Part shown: positions 4,749-24,724 of the stretch, piece after piece
Numbering within the stretch: the stretch's first letter is position 1
Layout of the letters: each line of letters opens with the position of its first letter
Origin: a virus
Lineage: Duplodnaviria; Caudoviricetes
Direction: 5' to 3' (one strand)
IMG/VR virus record: IMGVR_UViG_3300036987_000100
Span: 1-64,000 of that record
DNA: 64,000 bases
Notes under the pieces: model-generated
Database searches by the model: none
Told to the model about the DNA's origin: nothing
What the model saw: the letters and a program-made list of their open reading frames with translations, nothing else
Position numbers and translations under genes: made by a program

Positions 4749-7156
4749 TCCATTACTCTCTTCGAGAGCAAGCGCTTGAATCCTTGGTCCTTCACGAGCA
4801 GAGACTCGATTTCCCCCTTGGTTCCGAAGGGAACTCCGGCGCACAGCCACTTGCTACCTTCCTTTTTTAGGATCTCGTAACGTTCCGCTTGATCCATAAT
4901 AACAGACGCATCCAGCACGTCCCCCTTCTTATGGGTCTCCGTGTTTCCAAGAGCAACGCGGTAACCGCCCTCCATCATAGAGTGACCCTGCTTGTTTTTT
5001 TCACACTTGAAAGTGAAAAGAACGGAGAGCGGCTTTACGAGCATGAGATCGATATCGATTGCCTCCTTTTCTTCCTTTTCGCCCTTAACCTTCTCAATCT
5101 CGTACTTAGCCGTCTTAAACTTCACCTCAGTGGTGGCTGCAAACTGCGGAGCCATACCGCCAGGCTGAGTCTCGGGATTGCCGAACATCACACCGATCTT
5201 GAATCGAACTTGATTGGTGAAAAACACAGTGGGCTTGCGACCAGTCGTATTCCCCATGTGATTCAAGGCGGAAACGAACTTACGAATGCCTTTGCCGAGA
5301 ACACGGGATTGTGAACCCATCGTCTCTTTCGAGGCCGACTGTTCGATTTCTTTTTCGGGAGTCATGAACGCAAGAGAGTCCATGGCGAGGATGTCGATAT
5401 TTCCATCTCGGAGTAGCGCTTCAGCGATGTCGAGACTTTGCTCGGCGTACTCCGGTTCCGAAAGCAACAAAGAGTCGGTATTGATGCCTAGACCTCTCGC
5501 CCACTTCTGGTCCCAAGTGTTGTGAACTAGTATGTCGGACACCGTCCAAGAGTGCCCCAGAGGGATTCCGGCATCGTAGGTAGGTGCCTTCCCAGCAGGA
5601 GCAACAGCCTCCACGGTATCCCACCATACATCTGACTTGTTAAGGAACTGCTCTCGGTGCTTGATGTGACGTTTGTCCCGAGGGTTGTACGAGGGAAGAT
5701 AATTCTCTGAGGAGGGCTTGGATTTCAAGGAAGCACGAGAACACCATCTGGATAGCAACTTTCCCTTGTGCCCATACAAAGGAATTGCTGCTTGGAATTT
5801 CTTCAGGTTATCGACCCCGTAAATCCAGAGCACATGCCACGGCTGATGGAGTTCATCTCCGTCGTGCTGGGTATAAATGTGTCCCAAAATCCCAAGACGG
5901 CTCAGGAGCCACTTTACTTGAAGCATCAGACGTCTGGATGTGGAGGTAAAATGTAGCGCGGCGTTAGAAGAAGAGACACCGCCATCGGACATCCACAGGC
6001 CCTGGAGGGCAGCGGCAACCACGTCTTGTGTAGAATTCAGAATCTCTTGCGGTAGAAATTTGTGGTTGGCGGTAGACCCCAGTAGCCCAAGCGCGGCCAT
6101 GCGGCGACGAAGCTCGTTTTTGGACCCAGAGTTACTCACTAAGCGGCCGTGCCTATCGTCATACTTGGTCACTTTACAGCCCCAAGGACGCAGCAGTTCG
6201 GAAACCCTCTTCCAAATGTCGTCATCGGTGTTGGTCAACACCAGGCTGGAATTTGCATCAAAGCTCCCATCGCCGACCATCAACCCGACTAACTCTGCCA
6301 ACCCCACAGATACTCCGGTGTCCGAGCCTGCCATGGTCACCTTCCACGGCCTGGCAATCCTATCGCCCTTTTTTAGCTTACCGGCGTGCACCCATGAAGG
6401 TTTACCTTTACGCCAAGTTAAAATCGGGTGATCCGGAGTGCACTGCAGAGAAGTCGTGGAAGTAGACACCTTAACTGTCTCTTGGACACCAGAAGCTACG
6501 CGTACCACCGCCGGAGCGACAGCCAGTTTCCCCTCGTGCCACGAACAAACATGCCGAGCCTCCTTGGCAGTAATAAAGTCCTCTACGGTTCCAACAAACC
6601 CAGTTCGAGGGTCCATAATCTCTTGTGAGCCCGCGATGCAGCCTTCGTTATTGATGTAACCAACAACGACTTCGCGATATTTCCCACACGGACACGTAGG
6701 GCGCTTCAAAACCTCGCCCGTCGCGCCGTCAAAGAAAGTCACAAAGTTCCAGCAGTTCGCGCACATCTCTTGGGCGTTACCGATGGTCTTGAGAAGAGTA
6801 GATGTCTTTCCAGAAGACTTCGGACCCCAAACAGTATGAATGCCACCGACGCGCCAACCCCCGCCGAGAGCCCAATCCATTGAAAGAGAGCCTGAGGGGA
6901 TGAACTGGGAAACAGCAGAGTGGTGCTCGCTAGCTCGACGAATGATGCTGACGCCATGCTTCTTTGCAATAGCCTTCAGCGTGTCGGAAACCAAAACCTT
7001 GTCCAGGCGAGAGTGCTTAACAACCTTAACGGGAGCAACCTCGGAGGACTCCGAAGAGGATTCCTCTGACGCTCCGGAAGTTGCTGCTTCTGCGGCTTCA
7101 ATCGCATCGTCCTTCTTCTTGGCCATGTGATGCCTCTTAGAGAATGCTGGTGTCAC
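4730..7156 (-). CDS. recA: RecA-like recombinase with an intein (probable start MAKKKDD)
   Basis: SGSLSMDWALGGG, GPKSSGKTS (Walker A), MDSLA (Walker B), FTNQVRFKIGVMFGNPET. Confidence 0.92.
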   Translation of the reverse strand: MTPAFSKRHHMAKKKDDAIEAAEAATSGASEESSSESSEVAPVKVVKHSRLDKVLVSDTLKAIAKKHGVSIIRRASEHHSAVSQFIPSGSLSMDWALGGGWRVGGIHTVWGPKSSGKTSTLLKTIGNAQEMCANCWNFVTFFDGATGEVLKRPTCPCGKYREVVVGYINNEGCIAGSQEIMDPRTGFVGTVEDFITAKEARHVCSWHEGKLAVAPAVVRVASGVQETVKVSTSTTSLQCTPDHPILTWRKGKPSWVHAGKLKKGDRIARPWKVTMAGSDTGVSVGLAELVGLMVGDGSFDANSSLVLTNTDDDIWKRVSELLRPWGCKVTKYDDRHGRLVSNSGSKNELRRRMAALGLLGSTANHKFLPQEILNSTQDVVAAALQGLWMSDGGVSSSNAALHFTSTSRRLMLQVKWLLSRLGILGHIYTQHDGDELHQPWHVLWIYGVDNLKKFQAAIPLYGHKGKLLSRWCSRASLKSKPSSENYLPSYNPRDKRHIKHREQFLNKSDVWWDTVEAVAPAGKAPTYDAGIPLGHSWTVSDILVHNTWDQKWARGLGINTDSLLLSEPEYAEQSLDIAEALLRDGNIDILAMDSLAFMTPEKEIEQSASKETMGSQSRVLGKGIRKFVSALNHMGNTTGRKPTVFFTNQVRFKIGVMFGNPETQPGGMAPQFAATTEVKFKTAKYEIEKVKGEKEEKEAIDIDLMLVKPLSVLFTFKCEKNKQGHSMMEGGYRVALGNTETHKKGDVLDASVIMDQAERYEILKKEGSKWLCAGVPFGTKGEIESLLVKDQGFKRLLSKRVMECLLAD
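5519..6640 (-). mobile_element. intein in RecA, 374 aa, in-frame LAGLIDADG domain
   Basis: NNEG|CIAGSQ...CTPDHP...LMVGDG...LWMSDG...ILVHN|TWD. Confidence 0.95.
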
Positions 7157-11574: not shown

Positions 11575-11590
11575 ACGACCACATGGTCGC
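11575..11590. repeat. 16-bp palindrome copy 2 (ACGACCACATGGTCGC)
   Basis: Read directly; between the terminator and the tmk RBS. Confidence 0.95.
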
Positions 11591-14695: not shown

Positions 14696-15037
14696 TTAGG
14701 GTTTTGCGCCCAAGTAAGCAGCCAAGGTCGCTAAAGTGTGGAAGACGGGCCTATTTAGGGCCTGCATACGCTTAACCTCCCTTTCGGCTCCCGGAGAGAT
14801 TCCGGGCAGACGAAGCAAAGCATCTGAACGATCCAGCCACACAAAGTCATAGTCCATCCACTCCTCGTAGCTACGAGGCCGTAGCAGATGCAAATAATGG
14901 CTGAGATGGGGCACAAACGGAGTTGCCCCGAGGTCCATAATAGCGTGAGCCGCCATCAGCGCAGCCCGCACGTTGTCCTCCGTGTTTCCGCCAGAATAGG
15001 GACCTGCGATGTACACAGTCTTGATGCCAGACATCAT
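14696..15037 (-). CDS. DUF4406 / nucleoside 2-deoxyribosyltransferase-like protein
   Basis: VYIAGPYSG...PFVPH...WLDRSDALLRLPG.SPGAERE; GGAGG before the ATG at 15037. Confidence 0.75.
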   Translation of the reverse strand: MMSGIKTVYIAGPYSGGNTEDNVRAALMAAHAIMDLGATPFVPHLSHYLHLLRPRSYEEWMDYDFVWLDRSDALLRLPGISPGAEREVKRMQALNRPVFHTLATLAAYLGAKP

Positions 15038-15825
15038 ACCTCCGAAGCGACCACATGGTCGCTTGTTGGTTGAAAAGTTTTCAGGGCCAGGCTCTCGTAG
15101 CGACTGCCGCGCGAACCGCCCAGCCACACGCTGCTAGGGAGAATGGAGGTCTCCAACAAAAAGGCTTTCTGGATTTTTGACGCAGCATTCAAAACAACCA
15201 AGAAATGATACTTGGCTTTTCGATTGGTGGTATCGAAATGACAGCGGCCCCGATAGGGTCGAGAAGTCTTCACCTCTACCGGAGCCCCATCCAGCAGAAA
15301 GTCGTGCTCTGCGTACCAGTGCGTAGCCGAAATAGATACCGCAGTAGGGAATAAGCTCCCAAAGTAAGAAAGACCTATCTTGGCTAAGCGTACTCTCGGA
15401 TCGCTTTCGTTTCCAGAGGTGAGCTGTTCTCTGCGAGATAAGCTGATATGGCTGCTTGCGGGAAGCGCCTCTAGATTAAGTATGTGGTTATCGAGCTTGT
15501 CGCCGTTCTTGTGGTGTATGTGCCAACCATCAGGAGTAGACCCATGAGTAGTCTCCCACACCACAATAGGTTCAAAGACGTAGCCATGCCTATCGGCTCT
15601 CCTGTGTCTTGGGGCATAAATTCGTCTGTAGCCTCCGGCGATACTCGACTTGCCTTCCAGTCTTCTTCCGGCCGGACGTCGCGCAACTCCCTCCGCCTTT
15701 AGTAGATTGCTTATAGTAACAGGGGCACACGCATATAGAGCGCCCAATGACGCAGTTGTTTCCCCCGAGACATACGCATAGACAACGCGTGCTCTGTCCT
15801 CGGGAGTAACGAATAATTTTTTCAT
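15034..15825 (-). CDS. HNH endonuclease with N-terminal HTH and C-terminal PD-(D/E)XK-like domain
   Basis: IHHKNGDKLDNHILNL; DFLLDGAPVEVKTS. Confidence 0.8.
   Translation of the reverse strand: MKKLFVTPEDRARVVYAYVSGETTASLGALYACAPVTISNLLKAEGVARRPAGRRLEGKSSIAGGYRRIYAPRHRRADRHGYVFEPIVVWETTHGSTPDGWHIHHKNGDKLDNHILNLEALPASSHISLSRREQLTSGNESDPRVRLAKIGLSYFGSLFPTAVSISATHWYAEHDFLLDGAPVEVKTSRPYRGRCHFDTTNRKAKYHFLVVLNAASKIQKAFLLETSILPSSVWLGGSRGSRYESLALKTFQPTSDHVVASEV
15047..15062. repeat. 16-bp palindrome copy 3 (GCGACCACATGGTCGC)
   Basis: Read directly; just 5' of the GGAGG of the 15037 gene. Confidence 0.95.
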
Positions 15826-18464
15826 CAGAACGGAACGCTCCCCGGGTCACCCGAGCCACCACCAATATCAATCGGCTCAATTACATCCCCGCTGCCCTGC
15901 GCCAAAACCTCACTGAAGTTGCTCGATTCGAAATCCCAATTAAGTTCGAAGTCCCGGCCGTCACCATCTCGAACCTTGAGTTGCTTCACCTGCATTCGCT
16001 TCTCTTTCTTATTGTCGTCGGTCTGTACTAGACCAAAAATCAGGGTCGAGTGCCAGACCGCCGCATCCGTCAAAGCGATGCTTTCGGCAGTAGCAGTGGC
16101 AGCCTGGTTTTTCTTCACTTCACGATTGAACTGAGAAGTCACCACAATAGGCAACTTCTTGGACATCGTTAGTCTCTTCACTTCACTGAAGGCGTTTGCG
16201 GCCTGCTCGATGCGGTCCTTGCCTGGTACCTTGATGAGGTAGATACCGTCAATAATCACCATTTCAGGCTGCGCCTCGTCTATAGCCGCAGCAAGCGTTT
16301 CAACCCGAAAATCAAAATTACCACCAACAACCGTCAGACCCTTCTCATTCAAAACATTCTTGGTAGCCTTCTCCAGCCGCTCTCTCTCAAAAACGGTAAG
16401 CTGACCAGAGCGCACTCGACCAAACGGAAGCTTTTCTTTGAGCGCAAAGAATCGCAGCGCAATTCTCATTTTGCTCATTTCCGTCGTTACGTAGAGCACC
16501 TTGTGCTTCCGAAACACCTCTGTGAGAGGTCCGTAGTTGCCTTGGTCATCGCGGACCTTGGTCCACAGTTTATAGCCAGTCGAGGCGTGCTCCGCGAGCA
16601 TCAGGCTGGCAAAGGTATTGTGAACGATAATGTCGTTGGCGACAAAACAACTGGTAGGCTCGACGGTCAAGTCGTAGATTTTCTGTTGGCCAACGTCCTC
16701 GATGCTCTCAATAACGTCCCAAAAAATATCAGAGGACCAAAGCCACCTGTACTCCGACTCGATTCCAAATACCTCGCAAAAAGCCTTAAAGGGACGAAGC
16801 CAGAGAGAGCCGTTGGCTCCAAACATATCTCGGACACCGAAATAGGAATTCTGCCCAGCCTTGTGCGCCGGATCTCTCCCTAAGAGCTTAGCCACTCGCA
16901 CAAGTGAACCATCGCCAGTCCAGCGCCCAGAGCGCGCCTTCGCAAGTGCTGCTATCTTTGCCTCGAATTCCCTCGACACGCGCGGGTACCCAACGTTGGT
17001 ATTACGCTTCTTTTTAAGAAGAGCAGTAACTCTTTGCGCCTTCTCGCCCCACAAGTGTACTTCGCGTGCGAAATTCTCCAAGGAAGAGGAGTACACTCTT
17101 AAGCGCCACGCATCGAACTTCTTGCCGTCACAGGTCGCCTGTTTGTATCCAACGCTGCTCTGAATACCTAGGCGGAGCAAAAGACTTTGTAGCTGGCGCA
17201 CCATCTTTTCGGAAGCCAGGGTTACACCGGGGCCGGTACTGTCGACGTAACCATCGCACATCCAAAAGGTCGAAATGAACTCAGATAGAGACTTCGTGGG
17301 TAGACGGTAAACAACAGCAGGAATGGTCTTGTGTTTAGCTAAGATGCCATCCATCCCATATTGCCGCAGTAACGCTTTAACTGGTCGGCCTAACCCCTCA
17401 TCCCAAGCGAAAGCATAGTCATAGTTTGCACGGTGGCGCACTTCGACCCCAAAAGCACGAGCCGCCTCATGGGCACGCTCTAGAATCTCAGGATCCGCAG
17501 TACTAAATCCGACAGTGCGACTCGTATAAGAGCCCTCGGCGAGCAACAATGCCAACAAGAATACGGTCTCAGAAGGTAAATCCTCTGGATGTTCAGGAGC
17601 GGGCATTCTGGCTGGAAGTGCAACAGTCATCCCAACCTTAAACTGTTCCGCAGGTTTCCAACCCTCTGCCGTCAAAAGAGGGTGCTCCGGAGTAACCGTT
17701 ACAGAACGTCCTGACGCGTAAGTGAATTTTAGACAACGCTTGTGTCCTGTATCCACCTTGGCAGTAATCGGCGTGGAGTGAATCCCCTTCTCCGGACTCC
17801 AAGTGGTGACCAGCTTGAGAGAGGGGGTCGATACCACTTCTTCAATAGTGTGCTCTTCACCTGTCTCTGGATCGACAATGCGCGTGGAGGCACAAACACA
17901 CTTCCCAATTCCGCTTCGGGCCACAAAGAGAATTAGCTCCTCTTTATTGAATCCAAGCGTGGTGTCATTCATGGTCGCCCACGGCGTCATGATTCCACGC
18001 TCACCCGCCTCCATTCGCAGGTAGTAGTCCCAAACATTGGGACCCTCATCAAACATCGAGGTCACTCTGGAGTCAGCGGCCCCAACCTGAAGACGCTGGA
18101 TGCGATAAACGGCCTGCTGTAACTCTTCAAACGACTCTATGTTTTGCTGGCTCTTAAGAAGATCCAGCGCAGTGTCAACGGAGCGCTTTACCTCGTTGCC
18201 AATAGCATTCTTGAGGATTTCATCTGCCCAAAATCCAGCAGTACAGCCATCCATCGCGGGAGGGAGCGGGATACCGAGCTTAGCCTCAATTACCCCAACA
18301 TCAGGTAGGGCTCCGTACTGCGAATAATGAATCGCGATGTACTCAAGGGCGGGCGCAGCTACCCCCTGGAGAATCTCCGGAGGAATCGCCCGAGAGAGGA
18401 ACTCCCGGTAGGCGGGTTTGCCCCCGTCCAATATGGCTCGAACCAGCGACTGCGTGAAATCCAC
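15825..18464 (-). CDS. dnaB: DnaB-like replicative helicase with an intein
   Basis: ARSGIGK|T after splicing, VTTEMS, IIDGIYL, VTSQFNR. Confidence 0.92.
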   Translation of the reverse strand: MDFTQSLVRAILDGGKPAYREFLSRAIPPEILQGVAAPALEYIAIHYSQYGALPDVGVIEAKLGIPLPPAMDGCTAGFWADEILKNAIGNEVKRSVDTALDLLKSQQNIESFEELQQAVYRIQRLQVGAADSRVTSMFDEGPNVWDYYLRMEAGERGIMTPWATMNDTTLGFNKEELILFVARSGIGKCVCASTRIVDPETGEEHTIEEVVSTPSLKLVTTWSPEKGIHSTPITAKVDTGHKRCLKFTYASGRSVTVTPEHPLLTAEGWKPAEQFKVGMTVALPARMPAPEHPEDLPSETVFLLALLLAEGSYTSRTVGFSTADPEILERAHEAARAFGVEVRHRANYDYAFAWDEGLGRPVKALLRQYGMDGILAKHKTIPAVVYRLPTKSLSEFISTFWMCDGYVDSTGPGVTLASEKMVRQLQSLLLRLGIQSSVGYKQATCDGKKFDAWRLRVYSSSLENFAREVHLWGEKAQRVTALLKKKRNTNVGYPRVSREFEAKIAALAKARSGRWTGDGSLVRVAKLLGRDPAHKAGQNSYFGVRDMFGANGSLWLRPFKAFCEVFGIESEYRWLWSSDIFWDVIESIEDVGQQKIYDLTVEPTSCFVANDIIVHNTFASLMLAEHASTGYKLWTKVRDDQGNYGPLTEVFRKHKVLYVTTEMSKMRIALRFFALKEKLPFGRVRSGQLTVFERERLEKATKNVLNEKGLTVVGGNFDFRVETLAAAIDEAQPEMVIIDGIYLIKVPGKDRIEQAANAFSEVKRLTMSKKLPIVVTSQFNREVKKNQAATATAESIALTDAAVWHSTLIFGLVQTDDNKKEKRMQVKQLKVRDGDGRDFELNWDFESSNFSEVLAQGSGDVIEPIDIGGGSGDPGSVPF
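16617..17900 (-). mobile_element. intein in the DnaB P-loop, 428 aa, in-frame LAGLIDADG domain
   Basis: GIGK|CVCAST...VTPEHP...LLLAEG...FWMCDG...IIVHN|TFA. Confidence 0.95.
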
Positions 18465-19239: not shown

Positions 19240-20598
19240 TCACATCCCCATGGCTTTTAGATCTTCACGTACCGCATCGTAAGCTGCCTGTAGCTCCTTG
19301 GGCGCCCTGGTCGCGCTTGGGTTGGCATCACACCACTGGTCGTACTCCGTCTTCACCTTGAGCGCAGTGAACATCTTCTTGGCCTCCGGTACCACGGAGG
19401 CGTCAAGCGAGGTGAACAACCCGAGAGTTGGCAGCGTCGCCTTAATCTTCGGATAGCGCGCTCTTTGCCTCTCCCAGTAGCGAATGTAGTACCGCATGGC
19501 GCGCTCAAGGTCCTCATGGCCCCAACGTTCCAGTAGTCGCTTCAGCATTCCACCCTCCTTGGGTCCCCACGATTTCTCCATCGAGTCGTTGGGGAACTTC
19601 TGCTGAAACTCCAGCATCCAAGTTTGCTGCAGGTCATGCAACTTACCGAACAAAGTTTGCTTGGGGACCTTCAGCTTGGGAAGCGCAGGAGTACCTGAGG
19701 AGGCCTCCTGCTTCGCCTTGGCACGCTGCTTGGCCTCCTTTGCCGCCTTGGCCGCGTCGAATCGCTGTGCGCCTATCAGGGCGGCCCGCGCCACAGAGGC
19801 CTTACGAGCCTCAAGCTCTTCGTCCGACATGTGTTCCTCCTGTGTGTCATCCACTACAGCCACAACGGTTACAGGCTCGAAACGAAGCGCCGTCGCCGCG
19901 AAACCGTTTTTAGGTGTGAAATCATCCGTAGGAAAAAATTCCTGATCTTCGGTGAAATCCAGGTTTTTTGAAAATTTCTGATCTTCGGTGAAGCTGTTGG
20001 CGTGTGTCGACGAGCGAAGCGAGACGACTTGAGGTGAGCGAAGCGAACCTCTGCCTTTACTTCTTTCTTGAGTTGTTTCTTGAGTTGTTTCTTTGCTTGT
20101 CTCTTTGTACGCAGTCTGCGACGTTTTTTCCGCAGAAGTTGCCATGGCACCCGCAGGTTCTGCTTGTTGACCCGCAGATTCTGCGGGTAAGCCGGAGAAA
20201 TCTGCGAGCGACCTTACGGTGTCCATCCAGTTCAGTTCTGAACTCTCAGTGCGAGCCTCTGTTTGCGTGCTCCGTTCAAACTTCTTCCACTCAGTGATGT
20301 ATTGTGCCGGGATGAGTACGTAGAACCTGTTCGTGGAAAGCCCTCGCGAAACAATCTTCAGCATGTTCTTGCTTTTGAACTTACTAATGCATTCCTGAAC
20401 CTTTCGGACAGAGCACCCGATCTGTTTAGCGATAGTCTCTTGACTCGCCCACCCATGTCCCTCCTTCAAACAGTATCTGCGCATCCTGCCGTAGCAAACC
20501 TTCTCGATGGCGGTGAAATCGTCGCGATACGCCAACCAATCCGGGATGGCTGTAAAATCATCTGGACTTTTCGCAGAACTCTGGAGTTGTTCACTCAC
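19240..20598 (-). CDS. phage replication initiator with N-terminal winged HTH
   Basis: ASQETIAKQIGCSVRKVQECISKFKSKNML...RGLSTNRFYV; upstream of the loader and helicase genes. Confidence 0.75.
   Translation of the reverse strand: MSEQLQSSAKSPDDFTAIPDWLAYRDDFTAIEKVCYGRMRRYCLKEGHGWASQETIAKQIGCSVRKVQECISKFKSKNMLKIVSRGLSTNRFYVLIPAQYITEWKKFERSTQTEARTESSELNWMDTVRSLADFSGLPAESAGQQAEPAGAMATSAEKTSQTAYKETSKETTQETTQERSKGRGSLRSPQVVSLRSSTHANSFTEDQKFSKNLDFTEDQEFFPTDDFTPKNGFAATALRFEPVTVVAVVDDTQEEHMSDEELEARKASVARAALIGAQRFDAAKAAKEAKQRAKAKQEASSGTPALPKLKVPKQTLFGKLHDLQQTWMLEFQQKFPNDSMEKSWGPKEGGMLKRLLERWGHEDLERAMRYYIRYWERQRARYPKIKATLPTLGLFTSLDASVVPEAKKMFTALKVKTEYDQWCDANPSATRAPKELQAAYDAVREDLKAMGM
19942..20206. repeat. 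iteron-like repeat cluster inside the initiator gene (putative origin)
   Basis: CTGATCTTCGGTGAA x2; GAGCGAAGCGA x2; TTTCTTGAGTTG x2; ACCCGCAGRTTCTGC x2; 9-bp inverted repeat at 20170-20188. Confidence 0.6.
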
Positions 20599-21368
20599 GA
20601 AAGCACCAATTCCGGCAAAGTTCGAAGAGTTTCAACATATTGAAGTAGTTCTGGCGCGGAACGAAACCACTCTCCTCGGATGTGAAACTGTACAAACTTT
20701 TCGTGCAGTTCTTTTTCTGTTTTTCGCCCGCCAGGCACGCAAACCAACAGCTTCAACGGGCTAGTAGTCGAAGTCTGGAGTGCTGCTACACGGTTCGAAA
20801 CATTTTTGGAGAATCCAATCTTGATTGCGTCTGCTTGTACATCCTGTATGAAATACACCCAAGTAGCGCTCTCCTCGATCCGAACTATTTCTTTTTCCAC
20901 TAACATTCTGGCGTCTTTCTCTCTTGCCAGAGACTCGCACTCCTCAAGATACTTAGTCGTTTGGGCCTTCCCGAACGCTTCAAGTTCTTGCTTCGCTCTC
21001 TTGAGCGCGCGTCCGGCTTTTCGGAGATTGGTACCCGGAAGTGTCGTAATTGCCTCAACAAGCTCGATGAAGCCGACCATCACATCGAATTCATTAAGAA
21101 GGTTGCTGGAAACCTCAGGGAGCTGGTAGCCCCAGGCTTCCAGCTCTACTTTCGAGAGTGACGGTGTCGTACTGTCACAACGGCACTCGCAGCAGATCCG
21201 CAACTCGTTGCTAGGACCCTGCCCAGTGTGAATCCCCAAGCTGTGCCACCCCATGAAACCGCCACAGCCCTTGCATGGAGGCAGTGTGTGAGATTCAGAA
21301 AAAGGAATCCCCTCACATTTTGAGCAATAGTGACTTCCGTTAAGTCGAGCGTTCTTAGCGCTAGTCAT
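20595..21368 (-). CDS. T5orf172/Mug113 (GIY-YIG-like) domain protein with Cys-rich N-terminus
   Basis: VYFIQ...IKIGFSKNVSNRVAALQ...ELHEKF...RGEWF. Confidence 0.8.
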   Translation of the reverse strand: MTSAKNARLNGSHYCSKCEGIPFSESHTLPPCKGCGGFMGWHSLGIHTGQGPSNELRICCECRCDSTTPSLSKVELEAWGYQLPEVSSNLLNEFDVMVGFIELVEAITTLPGTNLRKAGRALKRAKQELEAFGKAQTTKYLEECESLAREKDARMLVEKEIVRIEESATWVYFIQDVQADAIKIGFSKNVSNRVAALQTSTTSPLKLLVCVPGGRKTEKELHEKFVQFHIRGEWFRSAPELLQYVETLRTLPELVLS

Positions 21369-21380
21369 GACTACGCTTTC

Positions 21381-21396
21381 GCGACCATGTGGTCGC
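21381..21396. repeat. 16-bp palindrome copy 4 (GCGACCATGTGGTCGC)
   Basis: Read directly; 13 nt upstream of the ATG at 21368. Confidence 0.95.
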
Positions 21397-21412
21397 CAGT
21401 TATGTCGCTTGG

Positions 21413-21635
21413 AAAAAAATAGGGTGACCCTGCTGGTCTCAGATCGGAGTGCCGGGGACTAACTCTCGTTGCGCGAAACAGGGGGAAACGCGCACGGAAC
21501 CCCGACCCCGAATCCAGCAGGGCCACCCTATAAAGGAGTGAGTACCACAAAGGCGTATTCAAGCAAGCTCCCCCTGTTTGAAACCGCAAGGTTTCTCAAA
21601 CAAGGGAGGCTGAGACCCGCCGAAGCTTGAGAACG
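21413..21635 (-). ncRNA. structured leader or ncRNA candidate upstream of the replication operon
   Basis: 18-bp stem 21419-21436/21514-21531 (G-U on the minus strand) followed by a U-tract; second hairpin 21568-21608; promoter upstream; endpoints approximate. Confidence 0.6.
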
Positions 21636-21641
21636 AAGGGG

Positions 21642-21670
21642 CTTGTACGCTTCGCTCACTTACTTAGCAA
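21642..21670 (-). promoter_or_regulatory. sigma70-like promoter candidate
   Basis: TTGCTA-N17-TACAAG. Confidence 0.5.
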
Positions 21671-21703
21671 GGCCCTAGATGTAGTGGGTACCTTTTCTTT
21701 GGA

Positions 21704-22456
21704 CTACTCCTTATCGGAGTCACTGCCTGGTTCAGTTTCTGCAAGGTCCTGCAGGCTTTCCCGTAAGTGCCTCTCGTAATCCCCGACCCAGTCATACGCG
21801 GAGGCTTCTCCTTCCCCCTCCTCCTCTTCGTAATTGAAGTCGAAGTCATCGGCAGTTCCCTTGAGTTGAGCTGCCACAAGCGAATCCACTCGTCGCCTCT
21901 CTCGCCTGGACTCGACGTCGGAGTAGCGCATGCTCTCCGAGATGCCAGAAGCCTTCAGGCGCGCATTTCGGGCCTTACGGCTGGTGTCCAAATCGAGCCC
22001 CAAGTCGCTCTGGTACGCACTCTTAGAGCCCTTGCCCCCGTAGCGGCCATCGTCCGTCTTGTCGTAGCCGAGCCAAGCATTACCTGAGCGGCCCTTGGCC
22101 TCATCTACTTCGAGTCGCCGAAGAGTGTCTTCTGCCGCCTTCATGATGGACCAAACCTGCATATACAAGTTATGCCGGGCATAACCCTGTGTCCGGGAGA
22201 CGCCATTCTTGAAATTGGTGTAGTCGATGGAAAGAACCGCTTTCGACATCGCCTCTGCAAATTCCTTCCGCCACGCCAGCGCGCGGTAGGGGTAGTCGGC
22301 GCCCGTAGGTGTTGCGACGATGTCTCCAAGGTTTGGGAGCCACTTTTGCTGCAACAGCTCCAAGTCCCCCTTCACGCGGGAACGGACGAGCAGCAAGTCC
22401 CTGTCCTGCCGGTGCTCAATTACGCTGAAGTACCCGAATCCCGAGAAAATCCACAA
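21704..22456 (-). CDS. conserved-looking hypothetical protein (WIF..FGYFSV...VRSR...ADYPYRA...IDYTNFK)
   Basis: GAAAGG upstream of the TTG at 22456; the ORF track extends to 22489. Confidence 0.75.
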   Translation of the reverse strand: MWIFSGFGYFSVIEHRQDRDLLLVRSRVKGDLELLQQKWLPNLGDIVATPTGADYPYRALAWRKEFAEAMSKAVLSIDYTNFKNGVSRTQGYARHNLYMQVWSIMKAAEDTLRRLEVDEAKGRSGNAWLGYDKTDDGRYGGKGSKSAYQSDLGLDLDTSRKARNARLKASGISESMRYSDVESRRERRRVDSLVAAQLKGTADDFDFNYEEEEGEGEASAYDWVGDYERHLRESLQDLAETEPGSDSDKE

Positions 22457-22485
22457 TGTAGTAACCAACCTTTCTAGTGTCTCCC

Positions 22486-22514
22486 ACACTAGCAGGTTGT
22501 CAGACGATTGTCAA
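22486..22514 (-). promoter_or_regulatory. sigma70-like promoter candidate
   Basis: TTGACA-N17-TAGTGT. Confidence 0.6.
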
Positions 22515-24124: not shown

Positions 24125-24132
24125 AGCTGCCC

Positions 24133-24161
24133 ACCCTACACCGCTGGACTGCGATTGTCAA
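24133..24161 (-). promoter_or_regulatory. sigma70-like promoter candidate, probably giving a leaderless mRNA
   Basis: TTGACA-N17-TAGGGT with TG extension; ATG begins 9 nt after the -10 box. Confidence 0.6.
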
Positions 24162-24198
24162 GAACAGCAGGGAGAAGGAAACGCTCGGGTGCTCGTCG

Positions 24199-24242
24199 AA
24201 ACAAAAAGCCCTTTCCGCGCCGAAGCACAGAAAGAGCCTTTT
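24199..24242 (-). terminator. Rho-independent terminator with a C(UUCG)G loop
   Basis: ~17-bp stem with G-U pairs on the minus strand, followed by TTTTTGTTT. Confidence 0.85.
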
Positions 24243-24341
24243 GCCTGTCCTGAGCGATATGCCCCCGGACAGGAGGGGCTAGGGAGTTCTTCGGAAGAAG
24301 GCGGGGATTCCGAAGGGGGTCTCGCCCTGACCCGGGGTACT
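24199..24341 (-). ncRNA. four-hairpin small RNA candidate
   Basis: Stems 24316-21/24329-34, 24289-96/24308-15 and 24244-50/24267-73 plus the terminator; promoter upstream; 5' end approximate. Confidence 0.55.
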
Positions 24342-24347
24342 TCAGCA

Positions 24348-24375
24348 AGGTACTTGGTACCCTAAGGCTTGTCAA
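24348..24375 (-). promoter_or_regulatory. sigma70-like promoter candidate for the sRNA
   Basis: TTGACA-N16-TACCTT. Confidence 0.45.
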
Positions 24376-24724
24376 GCTCCGCGACCACATGGTCGCTGTG
24401 CCCCGAGAGAAAGCGGGCCTCTCGCTCCTGCAGCTCGTGGTCGAAGACCTCAAACACCTGGGCCCGCAACAGATGAGGGCTTACACCCGCGTCTAATGGC
24501 TTTGCGAGCGCGAGATGAATCAGCGCCCGAAAATACCGACGCAAGATATGAATATCGGCCAAGTCTAAATTTCCGGACCTAACAGCGGCATCTAACGCCG
24601 GAGCAAGCAGCAACATAATCCCTGTTCGGGTTGTCGGCGTCTTCTCGGCAGAGCTACCAGTAGTTGTGTCGCTCACGGGACCCCTCTTCGGGAGGCTTTT
24701 ACGCGGTGATAACCACATTGTCAA
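24362..24724 (-). CDS. hypothetical protein; start may be the ATG at 24616
   Basis: Co-oriented ORF. Confidence 0.5.
   Translation of the reverse strand: MTMWLSPRKSLPKRGPVSDTTTGSSAEKTPTTRTGIMLLLAPALDAAVRSGNLDLADIHILRRYFRALIHLALAKPLDAGVSPHLLRAQVFEVFDHELQEREARFLSGHSDHVVAELDKP
24381..24396. repeat. 16-bp palindrome copy 5 (GCGACCACATGGTCGC)
   Basis: Read directly; 5 bp upstream of a -35 box. Confidence 0.95.
24696..24724 (-). promoter_or_regulatory. sigma70-like promoter candidate
   Basis: TTGACA-N17-TAAAAG. Confidence 0.4.

Follow-up and report, generated by a model that had tools for sequence, protein, structure and literature searches.

Architecture of the leader region

The longest non-coding gap on the gene strand of a Caudoviricetes phage known from IMG/VR record IMGVR_UViG_3300036987_000100 (positions 21369-21703; 335 nt, minus strand) lies between a gene of unassigned function and a series of replication genes, and carries a predicted leader RNA, which most probably represents a novel RNA element controlling phage replication. 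The DNA analysed, hereafter the window, comprises the first 64 kb of the 75.7-kb virus record, and nearly all of its genes are carried on the minus strand. An earlier note on this DNA had described a promoter (TTGCTA-N17-TACAAG), a hairpin (A), a long hairpin (B) closed by an 18-bp stem with one G-U pair and followed by seven U residues, an exact complementarity between the apical loop of B and the 3′ arm of A, and a palindrome copy further downstream. Re-read base by base, all coordinates given for the promoter, hairpins and loop pairing proved correct, and the palindrome copy is likewise present after hairpin B (Table 1). Omitted from that reading was a conserved TTG-initiated open reading frame (ORF) that runs through hairpin B. 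This frame gives the loop pairing a concrete meaning, the masking of a ribosome-binding site, and provides a possible way past the terminator.

Table 1. Positions in the window of the leader features and of the adjacent genes (SD, Shine-Dalgarno)
Feature	Position	Strand	Description
Upstream gene	21704-22489	minus	261 aa, function unassigned, no Pfam match
Promoter-like site P1	21642-21670	minus	TTGCTA (21670-21665), 17-nt spacer, TACAAG (21647-21642)
5′ segment and small hairpin	21608-21634	minus	GUUCUCAAGC at 21634-21625; hairpin with conserved loop CUCAGCC at 21622-21608
Hairpin A	21568-21608	minus	C/U-rich 5′ arm (anti-SD) with G-rich 3′ arm, UUGC loop
G-rich target	21569-21579	minus	AAACAGGGGGA, complementary to apical loop of B
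Possible promoter-like site P2	21539-21566	minus	TTGCTT, N16, TGgTACTCA; read by eye
Leader ORF	21371-21562	minus	TTG start, 63 codons, stop TAG at 21373-21371; spans hairpin B, U-run and palindrome
Hairpin B	21419-21531	minus	113 nt; 18-bp closing stem (21531-21514 with 21436-21419, one G-U), invariant middle helix with G-U pairs and bulges, apical stem-loop
Apical loop of B	21476-21488	minus	UUUCCCCCUGUUU, C-rich, anti-SD
U-run	21412-21418	minus	7 T directly after closing stem; first T also closes stem
Palindrome copy in leader	21381-21396	minus	GCGACCACRTGGTCGC, between U-run and next start codon, inside leader ORF
Palindrome copies in window	341, 11575, 15047, 21381, 24381, 36656, 39504, 46545, 50619, 54753		16 nt each
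T5orf172/MUG113 (GIY-YIG-like) protein gene	20595-21368	minus	257 aa, Pfam matches
Helix-turn-helix (HTH) initiator-like gene	19240-20598	minus	452 aa, after nuclease-like gene
DnaB gene	15825-18464	minus	879 aa, intein and LAGLIDADG domain

The leader element was also found in four metagenomic contigs (L005, L006, L009 and L007), where it is flanked by the same upstream gene on one side and by the replication module on the other. Metagenome homologues of the upstream protein (42-73% identity) were aligned (A1), and this alignment was used to scan metagenome contigs. All comparisons concern five sequences, the window and these four relatives, three of them close; a further 12 or so contigs with genes for close homologues of this protein lie outside the comparison. 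By BlastN against the intergenic element, L005 shares 86% identity over 347 nt, L006 83% over hairpin B and L009 75%, while L007 has an equal architecture in very different letters. The gene order in all four relatives is the upstream gene, the RNA, an initiator (approximately 420-430 aa), a 252-aa gene and DnaB (approximately 453 aa, or ended by the contig edge), with one additional ORF (1773-2228; 151 aa) separating leader and initiator gene in L007.

Structural conservation of hairpin B on the gene strand

Both strands of the leader were folded, a covariance model (R1) was built from the homologous sequences and Rfam was searched, as the earlier note had proposed. The minus-strand RNA from 21650 to 21400 folds at -108.6 kcal/mol, compared with -82.4 ± 4.8 kcal/mol for 200 shuffled sequences (z-score: -5.45; none as good), while the plus-strand fold reaches a z-score of -3.1 against its shuffles. 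In the five-sequence alignment (A4), RNAalifold gives 43 pairs for hairpin B, with 93.5% of the cells paired, compared with 36-49% when the partners are slid by one to three columns. Fifteen of the pairs are changed on both sides, a number reached by none of 500 shuffles, and L007 replaces most of the letters of the 18-bp stem with the pairing retained. A number of G-U pairs recur in most or all of the five sequences and, as these would be C-A mismatches on the other strand, the structure of B pertains to the gene strand only. Model R1 likewise scores 91-133 bits on the sense strand and 30-49 bits on the antisense strand. Hairpin B is a conserved structured RNA on the gene strand.

The middle helix of B (approximately 26 + 20 nt) is invariant in four of the phages even at wobble positions, against an identity of only 42-73% for the neighbouring protein, indicating that the constraint is on the RNA. 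This invariance points to a sequence-specific partner, which may be a protein or an RNase. In the window, the G+C-rich 18-bp stem and the seven U residues that follow have the form of an intrinsic terminator. The terminator scanner does not call B, as the hairpin exceeds its length rule. A U-rich run also follows B in L005, L006 and L007; L009 lacks it and has AGUUGUAU (L009:3553-3606).

The loop of the candidate terminator is complementary to an upstream site

The loop of B (CCCCCUGUUU; 21485-21476) is exactly complementary to AAACAGGGGG (21579-21570), as previously described over 10 nt, and the perfect match extends to 11 nt, reaching 21569. Nowhere else on the gene strand of the 64 kb does the loop complement have a match of at least 10 nt, and the loop-target duplex (-20.6 kcal/mol) is better than those of all 12,636 other 24-nt gene-strand stretches. 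An SD-like sequence, GGGGGAG (21574-21568), and the paired stretch end 5 nt and 6 nt before the TTG at 21562, respectively. The rest of the window contains 12 stretches of 8-9 nt that match the loop complement, a number close to chance, and none of these potential trans targets lies at a start codon.

The complementarity is found in every relative, with target letters that vary by phage. Perfect matches extend over 11 nt in the window (AAACAGGGGGA), 10 nt in L005 (AACAGGGGAA), nine nt in L006 (ACGCUAGGA) and eight nt in L009 (GAAAGGUG), while the duplex of L007 has 16 bp, G-U pairs among them, and one bulge (-23.4 kcal/mol). In every sequence but L007, 88-91 nt separate the target from the loop downstream of it, and in all five the target ends 6-8 nt before the TTG codon. 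The duplex energy is better than that of 96% of the background stretches in L009, and than that of all of them in the other four phages. Pairing was counted by script in each sequence separately, since the target columns are out of register in the MAFFT alignment. No loop complement of at least eight nt occurs downstream of B, in the remainder of the leader or at the next gene start, in the window, L005, L006 or L009. The complementarity between loop and target covaries in all five sequences. It is the firmest of the new results, and bears out the central observation of the earlier note on phylogenetic grounds.

A conserved open reading frame passes through the candidate terminator hairpin

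The TTG codon that follows the target is invariant in all five sequences and opens a frame of 63 codons in the window, 65 in both L005 and L006, 64 in L009 and 81 in L007, while the remaining two frames contain one to five stops each. The end of the frame falls 3 nt before the first base of the next start codon in the window, 3 nt after it in L005, exactly at it in L006, 15 nt before it in L009 and 15 nt after it in L007. The resulting junctions include a 2-nt gap to an ATG in the window and overlaps of GTGA in L005 and TGATG in L006, with GTG as the next start in L009 and ATG in L007. This placement of the stop holds across differing next genes, which encode the nuclease-like protein, the initiator or the product of the extra ORF. 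An open frame with such a stop occurs in 3.5-7.3% of shuffles per sequence, or approximately 1e-4 over three independent lineages, a figure which is suggestive only, as it derives from five sequences, three of them close, and from an interval chosen post hoc.

The encoded peptide is not conserved and the substitutions show no third-position bias. In the lineage of the window, an insertion of one nucleotide in the loop is compensated by a deletion of one nucleotide 30 nt later, so that the frame stays open, while the 3′ half of the L009 frame and the loop region of L005 are read in another frame. Conservation thus concerns the openness of the frame and not a protein. The 3′ part of the target is SD-like in each case (GGGGGAG in the window; GGGGAAG, UAGGAC, AAGGUG and UGGGGU in the relatives). 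In all five sequences, a leader ORF with a putative ribosome-binding site therefore extends through the candidate terminator hairpin, as in pyrBI-type attenuation, and terminates at, near or overlapping the next start codon, as in translationally coupled leaders.

The 5′ domain is variable

Upstream of the frame, the CTCAGCC motif of the small 5′ hairpin is invariant in four of the five sequences. The earlier note had proposed that hairpin A and the loop pairing compete as a switch. The complementarity of the loop to an upstream site is, as shown above, kept in all five sequences, but hairpin A is strong only in the window (-21.6 kcal/mol; 0/300 shuffles as good) and in L005 (-17.2 kcal/mol; shuffle fraction: 0.010). 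In L006 and L009 the A pairing is not better than in shuffles, and the target is there engaged in other local helices. Hairpin A was as such rejected as the conserved partner. L005, L006 and L009 lack its plus-strand GCAA loop.

An alternative helix (helix P1) is formed by GUUCUCAAGC with the 5′ arm of hairpin A; four of its pairs are changed on both sides in the RNAalifold analysis of four sequences. Compared with shuffles, this duplex is significant only in the window (shuffle fraction: 0.003), with fractions of 0.14 in L005, 0.37 in L006 and 0.10 in L009. The 5′ domain may therefore be changeable, perhaps bistable, with five sequences insufficient to settle its fold. Two further pairings were considered and rejected: a classical antiterminator pairing with the 5′ arm of B, of which none is conserved among the five sequences, and a helix between the -10 region (CAAGC) and GCUUG, one side of which is altered in L006 without compensation. 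None of the competing pairings (helix P1, hairpin A and loop-target) involves the 18-bp terminator stem, so that the switch as originally drawn cannot alone decide termination.

Promoter-like sites

The promoter letters of the earlier note are present, and a promoter-like site of the form TTGMNN, 17-18 nt, TAnnn[G/T] occurs at the equal position in all five sequences, while the letters of the spacer diverge. In L007 this site (P1) is near consensus (TTGACA-N18-TAGGGT), resembling other promoter-like sites of the window phage. A consensus scanner does not call P1 in the window, where the -10 box lacks the final T. The predicted start of the RNA transcribed from P1 is near 21635. No promoter-like site was found between B and the next gene.

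A second candidate (P2) overlaps the start of the leader frame. Its TGnTA motif is kept in four of the five sequences and lies at a constant distance of 7 nt from the first paired base of B in all five. Its -10 boxes lack the final T, L005 lacks a -35 box, and only L006 passes a loose promoter pattern. The conserved CTTG and TGTGGTA letters may alternatively represent this promoter, whose RNA would begin at the very foot of B. On the antisense strand, a pattern search for TTGNNN, 16-18 nt, TAnnn[T/G] gave no match in the five leaders, although an unusual promoter could escape such a search.

A phage-wide palindrome follows hairpin B

The 16-nt palindrome GCGACCACRTGGTCGC found after hairpin B is present in 10 copies in the window, against 0.7 expected, and further copies occur in L005, L007, L009, L010 and L012. 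Most copies lie 10-30 nt upstream of a gene-strand start codon, and those at 11575 and 21381 directly follow an intrinsic terminator. After B, L005, L009 and L007 have retained a copy, in L007 with symmetrically altered letters (GAGACC...GGTCTC), whereas L006 lacks it. Start-associated sequences have been described in Cluster K mycobacteriophages (PMC3203893), which the palindrome resembles, and it could function as an operator or as an mRNA 5′ hairpin. At 24130-24400 of the window (minus strand), two near-consensus promoter-like sites, TTGACA-N17-TACCTT and TTGACA-N17-TAGGGT, are placed on either side of a neighbouring small-RNA gene, and a palindrome copy abuts the -35 box of the first of these.

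Distribution of the element

Searches beyond the four relatives yielded no further copies of the leader. BlastN of the gap and of the surrounding 7.9 kb against cultured phages gave nothing useful, and tBlastN of both flanking proteins against cultured phages gave distant domain matches only. Searches of IMG/VR for related loci with single proteins gave no match. The exact stem pattern has one match in IMG/VR, which is coding and attributable to chance; a second near-match in the window, at 4977, was rejected as a chance occurrence inside a coding sequence. The 16-mer core of B has 23 matches in IMG/VR and more than 120 in GTDB genomes, all of them chance matches without the 3′ half, while a degenerate two-part pattern gave none in IMG/VR. 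Model R1 found no additional copy in the remainder of the phage record or in two more distant viral records. In three contigs with distant relatives of the upstream gene (L003, L008 and L011), different genes come next and no leader was found. No Rfam 15 family, with C4 antisense RNA, IsrK and the known leaders and riboswitches included, reaches its gathering threshold in the 64-kb window or the four relatives, and at E-values up to 10 the 500-nt region gives two chance-level matches only (a nematode small nucleolar RNA and a microRNA). The element so far appears to be restricted to a small clade of environmental phages.

Genes flanking the leader

The upstream gene encodes a member of an uncharacterised phage protein family with an invariant ADYPYRALAW block in alignment A1. 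Its true start is probably at MWIF, giving a protein of 250 aa. Phages of Pseudomonas, Aeromonas and Morganella and one actinomycete phage carry more distant members of the family. No terminator was found between this gene and the leader.

The earlier note had listed genes for a nuclease, an initiator, a loader and DnaB after the leader. Replication genes do lie directly downstream in all five sequences, but the nuclease-like gene, located between the leader and the initiator-like gene, occurs only in the phage of the window, while in the relatives the initiator gene follows, or a single extra ORF in the case of L007. In the window, the initiator-like gene is followed by the 252-aa gene and then by the intein-bearing DnaB gene, after which an HNH endonuclease gene is found (15034-15825). 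On the basis of the gene order in the four relatives, the nuclease gene and the DnaB intein are judged to be insertions peculiar to this phage, and the RNA to belong to the replication module. The search with the 257-aa nuclease-like protein gave no full-length homologue. An N-terminal CxxC-N13-CxxC motif supports its start at ATG 21368, whereas the database call (219 aa) omits this motif. As the leader frame stops 2 nt before this ATG and no clear SD sequence is present, the nuclease gene is probably a mobile homing-type gene whose translation now relies on the leader frame.

A proposed translation-gated attenuator and coupling device

We tentatively suggest, with somewhat less than even confidence, that the leader acts as a translation-gated attenuator and coupling device in which the loop of the terminator serves as an anti-SD sequence, in cis or in trans. 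The proposed element would be a cis-regulatory leader of approximately 225 nt in the replication operon, transcribed from a weak sigma-70-like promoter or by read-through from upstream, and would comprise a G-rich ribosome-binding site, the TTG codon and a frame of 63-81 codons, the peptide itself being irrelevant. The 18-bp base of B and the U-run would constitute an intrinsic terminator. This is taken to be a conditional barrier because the replication genes, which have no visible promoter of their own, lie behind it. The only conserved feature that could defeat B would be the leader frame. A ribosome translating this frame would block formation of the base of B and permit read-through, as in pyrBI, where a closely following ribosome keeps the terminator hairpin from forming (PMC5021804, PMC4824070). 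The same ribosomes would then be delivered to the next start codon, resulting in translational coupling of the kind known from tap-repA, repY-repZ and orf45-anrP, in which the ribosome of the leader frame is handed over to the next start (PMC8053102, PMC4825925).

Ribosome loading would be restrained in two ways, by a local helix (hairpin A in the window and L005, and other helices elsewhere), and by the C-rich loop of B, which is anti-SD to the loading site in every relative. The loop could act in cis once B has folded, or in trans from a terminated or separately started B RNA. Such B RNAs would accumulate with genome copy number and thereby exert negative feedback on the replication genes. 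One hairpin would in that case be the terminator, part of the frame needed to pass it and the repressor of the ribosome-binding site of that frame, with terminated copies counting genomes in trans and neither an antisense gene nor a protein repressor involved. This fuller version is possible, if rather doubtful. Since L009 keeps the frame and the pairing in the absence of the U-run, the translational part of the proposed device may be universal and termination an addition.

Several points weigh against this interpretation. Termination cannot be a universal output, given that L009 lacks the U-run after B, and the loop-target pairing leaves the terminator stem closed, so that it could influence termination only indirectly. 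TTG is a weak start codon and the SD-like stretches (GGGGAAG, UAGGAC, AAGGUG and UGGGGU) are imperfect, while in four of the five sequences the -10 box of P1 (TACAAG/TAGAAG) lacks the canonical final T. The conserved CTTG and TGTGGTA letters can equally fit a second promoter, and the start-codon and promoter readings may both hold. The open-frame statistic carries the limits given above. The model also leaves the invariant middle helix of B unexplained. Transcription of the leader, translation of its frame, termination at B and the cis or trans mode of the loop are all inferred. As regards the attenuator, copy-number control element or non-coding RNA that the earlier note had put forward, a conserved and strand-specific structured RNA is indeed present (R1: 127 bits sense; 43 bits antisense), but no pairing was found that opens the terminator stem.

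Alternative explanations

The strongest of the alternatives, although on balance unlikely, is that B represents a stand-alone small RNA of approximately 120 nt, derived from termination in the leader or from an internal extended -10 promoter starting exactly at its foot, and that it acts purely on its own strand, like the antisense RNAs P4 CI and P1 c4. The open frame would then be accidental, and the loop-target pairing would act by another route, for instance processing, Rho loading or folding of the nascent leader. A fully closed hairpin with a U tail is the usual form of a stable antisense RNA, and the TGnTA motif at its constant distance from B would fit an internal start. The window phage has a second small RNA with promoter and terminator 3 kb away, and the loop complement has no gene-strand match of 10 nt or longer in the window other than the target in the leader itself. 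The CI RNA of P4 likewise pairs with an upstream sequence of its own strand, and ends transcription before the replication genes are reached (PMC4825925). Against this explanation, the -10 boxes of the putative internal promoter are without the final T, a -35 box is absent from L005, no second downstream target resembling seqC or a2/b2 was found, and neither sequence nor Rfam comparison relates B to C4 or IsrK/CI. It also leaves unexplained why an open frame should end at the next start in all five sequences.

It is less probable again that the locus is an ordinary operon boundary, with B a large terminator or an RNase III-type processing or stability hairpin, the loop-target pairing only a stabilising pseudoknot, and no regulation taking place. 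RNase III cuts long duplexes, such as the processing sites of T7 and lambda, and the 18-bp stem with some 20 further pairs gives B a suitable length. The adjoining U-run favours a plain terminator. Another terminator of the window, at 11575, is likewise followed by the palindrome and then a gene, and the lack of a terminator between the upstream gene and the leader would fit an operon boundary at B. A plain terminator, however, needs neither a covarying pairing to a site 6-8 nt before a conserved start codon, nor a conserved upstream promoter-like site, nor an open frame. With no promoter-like site after B, an efficient and unregulated terminator would moreover silence the replication genes, and L009 retains everything but the U-run.

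That the frame at 21562-21371 encodes a real protein of approximately 63 aa, with the RNA structure incidental, is very improbable: it is open in all five sequences and the window and L009 share PLWYS from different codons (Ser TCA and AGC, respectively), but L006 and L007 lack PLWYS, the frame shifts within L009 and L005, the substitutions lack third-position bias and occur as compensating pairs, 26 nt are invariant even at wobble positions, and a composition rich in R, S, P and G resembles that of a translated structured RNA. Least probable of all is a plus-strand antisense RNA of the pT181/pIP501 type, which the earlier note had allowed for, or a DNA element (cruciform, origin or operator), which the plus-strand fold and the GCAA loop of A in the window might favour, but against which stand the conserved G-U pairs, the strand asymmetry of R1, the absence of an antisense promoter-like site from all five leaders and the loss of the GCAA loop in the relatives. 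Frame shifts, pairwise substitutions, conserved G-U pairs and strand asymmetry thus contradict these last two explanations.

Comparison with known control systems

The suggested attenuator and coupling device shares parts with several characterised systems. As in P4 CI (seqA/seqC), IsrK of Gifsy-1 and c4 of P1/P7, a stable hairpin is found in the leader of a phage operon, which in P4 is the replication operon, and its loop is complementary to an upstream same-strand site in the same transcript, as is the case in all five sequences here. RNAs of this type cause premature termination or block downstream translation, and the short form can act on the read-through form; terminated IsrK acts on its own read-through mRNA, while P4 CI pairs with seqA and seqC (PMC4825925). 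Unlike in P4 CI and c4, hairpin B is itself the candidate terminator and lies inside a leader ORF, and only the upstream target was found. There is furthermore no sequence or Rfam similarity, and the phage lineage, and presumably the host, differs.

The extension of a leader ORF through an intrinsic terminator hairpin is shared with pyrBI (pyrL). Hairpin B is, however, not small (113 nt), no sign of a nucleotide-sensing pause tract was observed, and control would sit at ribosome loading (a masked SD sequence and a TTG start) rather than at coupling speed, and in a phage replication operon rather than a biosynthetic one. In the IncI-alpha, IncB and IncFII plasmids (repY-repZ, repB-repA and tap-repA), a short leader ORF similarly ends at the next start and initiator expression depends on its translation (PMC8053102). 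A hairpin loop there pairs with a distant site near a ribosome-binding site in a system that sets copy number, repZ being controlled by leader-peptide coupling together with a loop pseudoknot (PMC8053102). The plasmid pseudoknot is an activator of rep translation, with an opposite-strand countertranscript as the inhibitor, whereas in the phages no antisense promoter-like site is seen, the loop pairs with the SD sequence of the leader ORF itself, which should inhibit, and a terminator is also present. In pT181 and pIP501, a terminator is likewise located in the leader of a replication gene and pairing between RNAs decides expression (PMC5703833, PMC4981023), as it would here. Both require a countertranscript and an antiterminator/terminator alternative, while the search of the phage leaders gave no antisense promoter-like site and no pairing in competition with the terminator stem.

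The individual parts are thus of known kinds, while the combination of a terminator, a leader ORF and an anti-SD loop was not found described in the literature. RNA control of replication is textbook knowledge for plasmids, P4 and P1, but is, to our knowledge, almost unknown in uncultivated environmental phages. Read cautiously, the leader represents a new conserved RNA motif that marks the replication module in a clade of large phages from the environment. If the proposed model is true, it would constitute a compact new design for the control of copy number or timing in phage replication, and would provide a portable terminator-and-translation switch.

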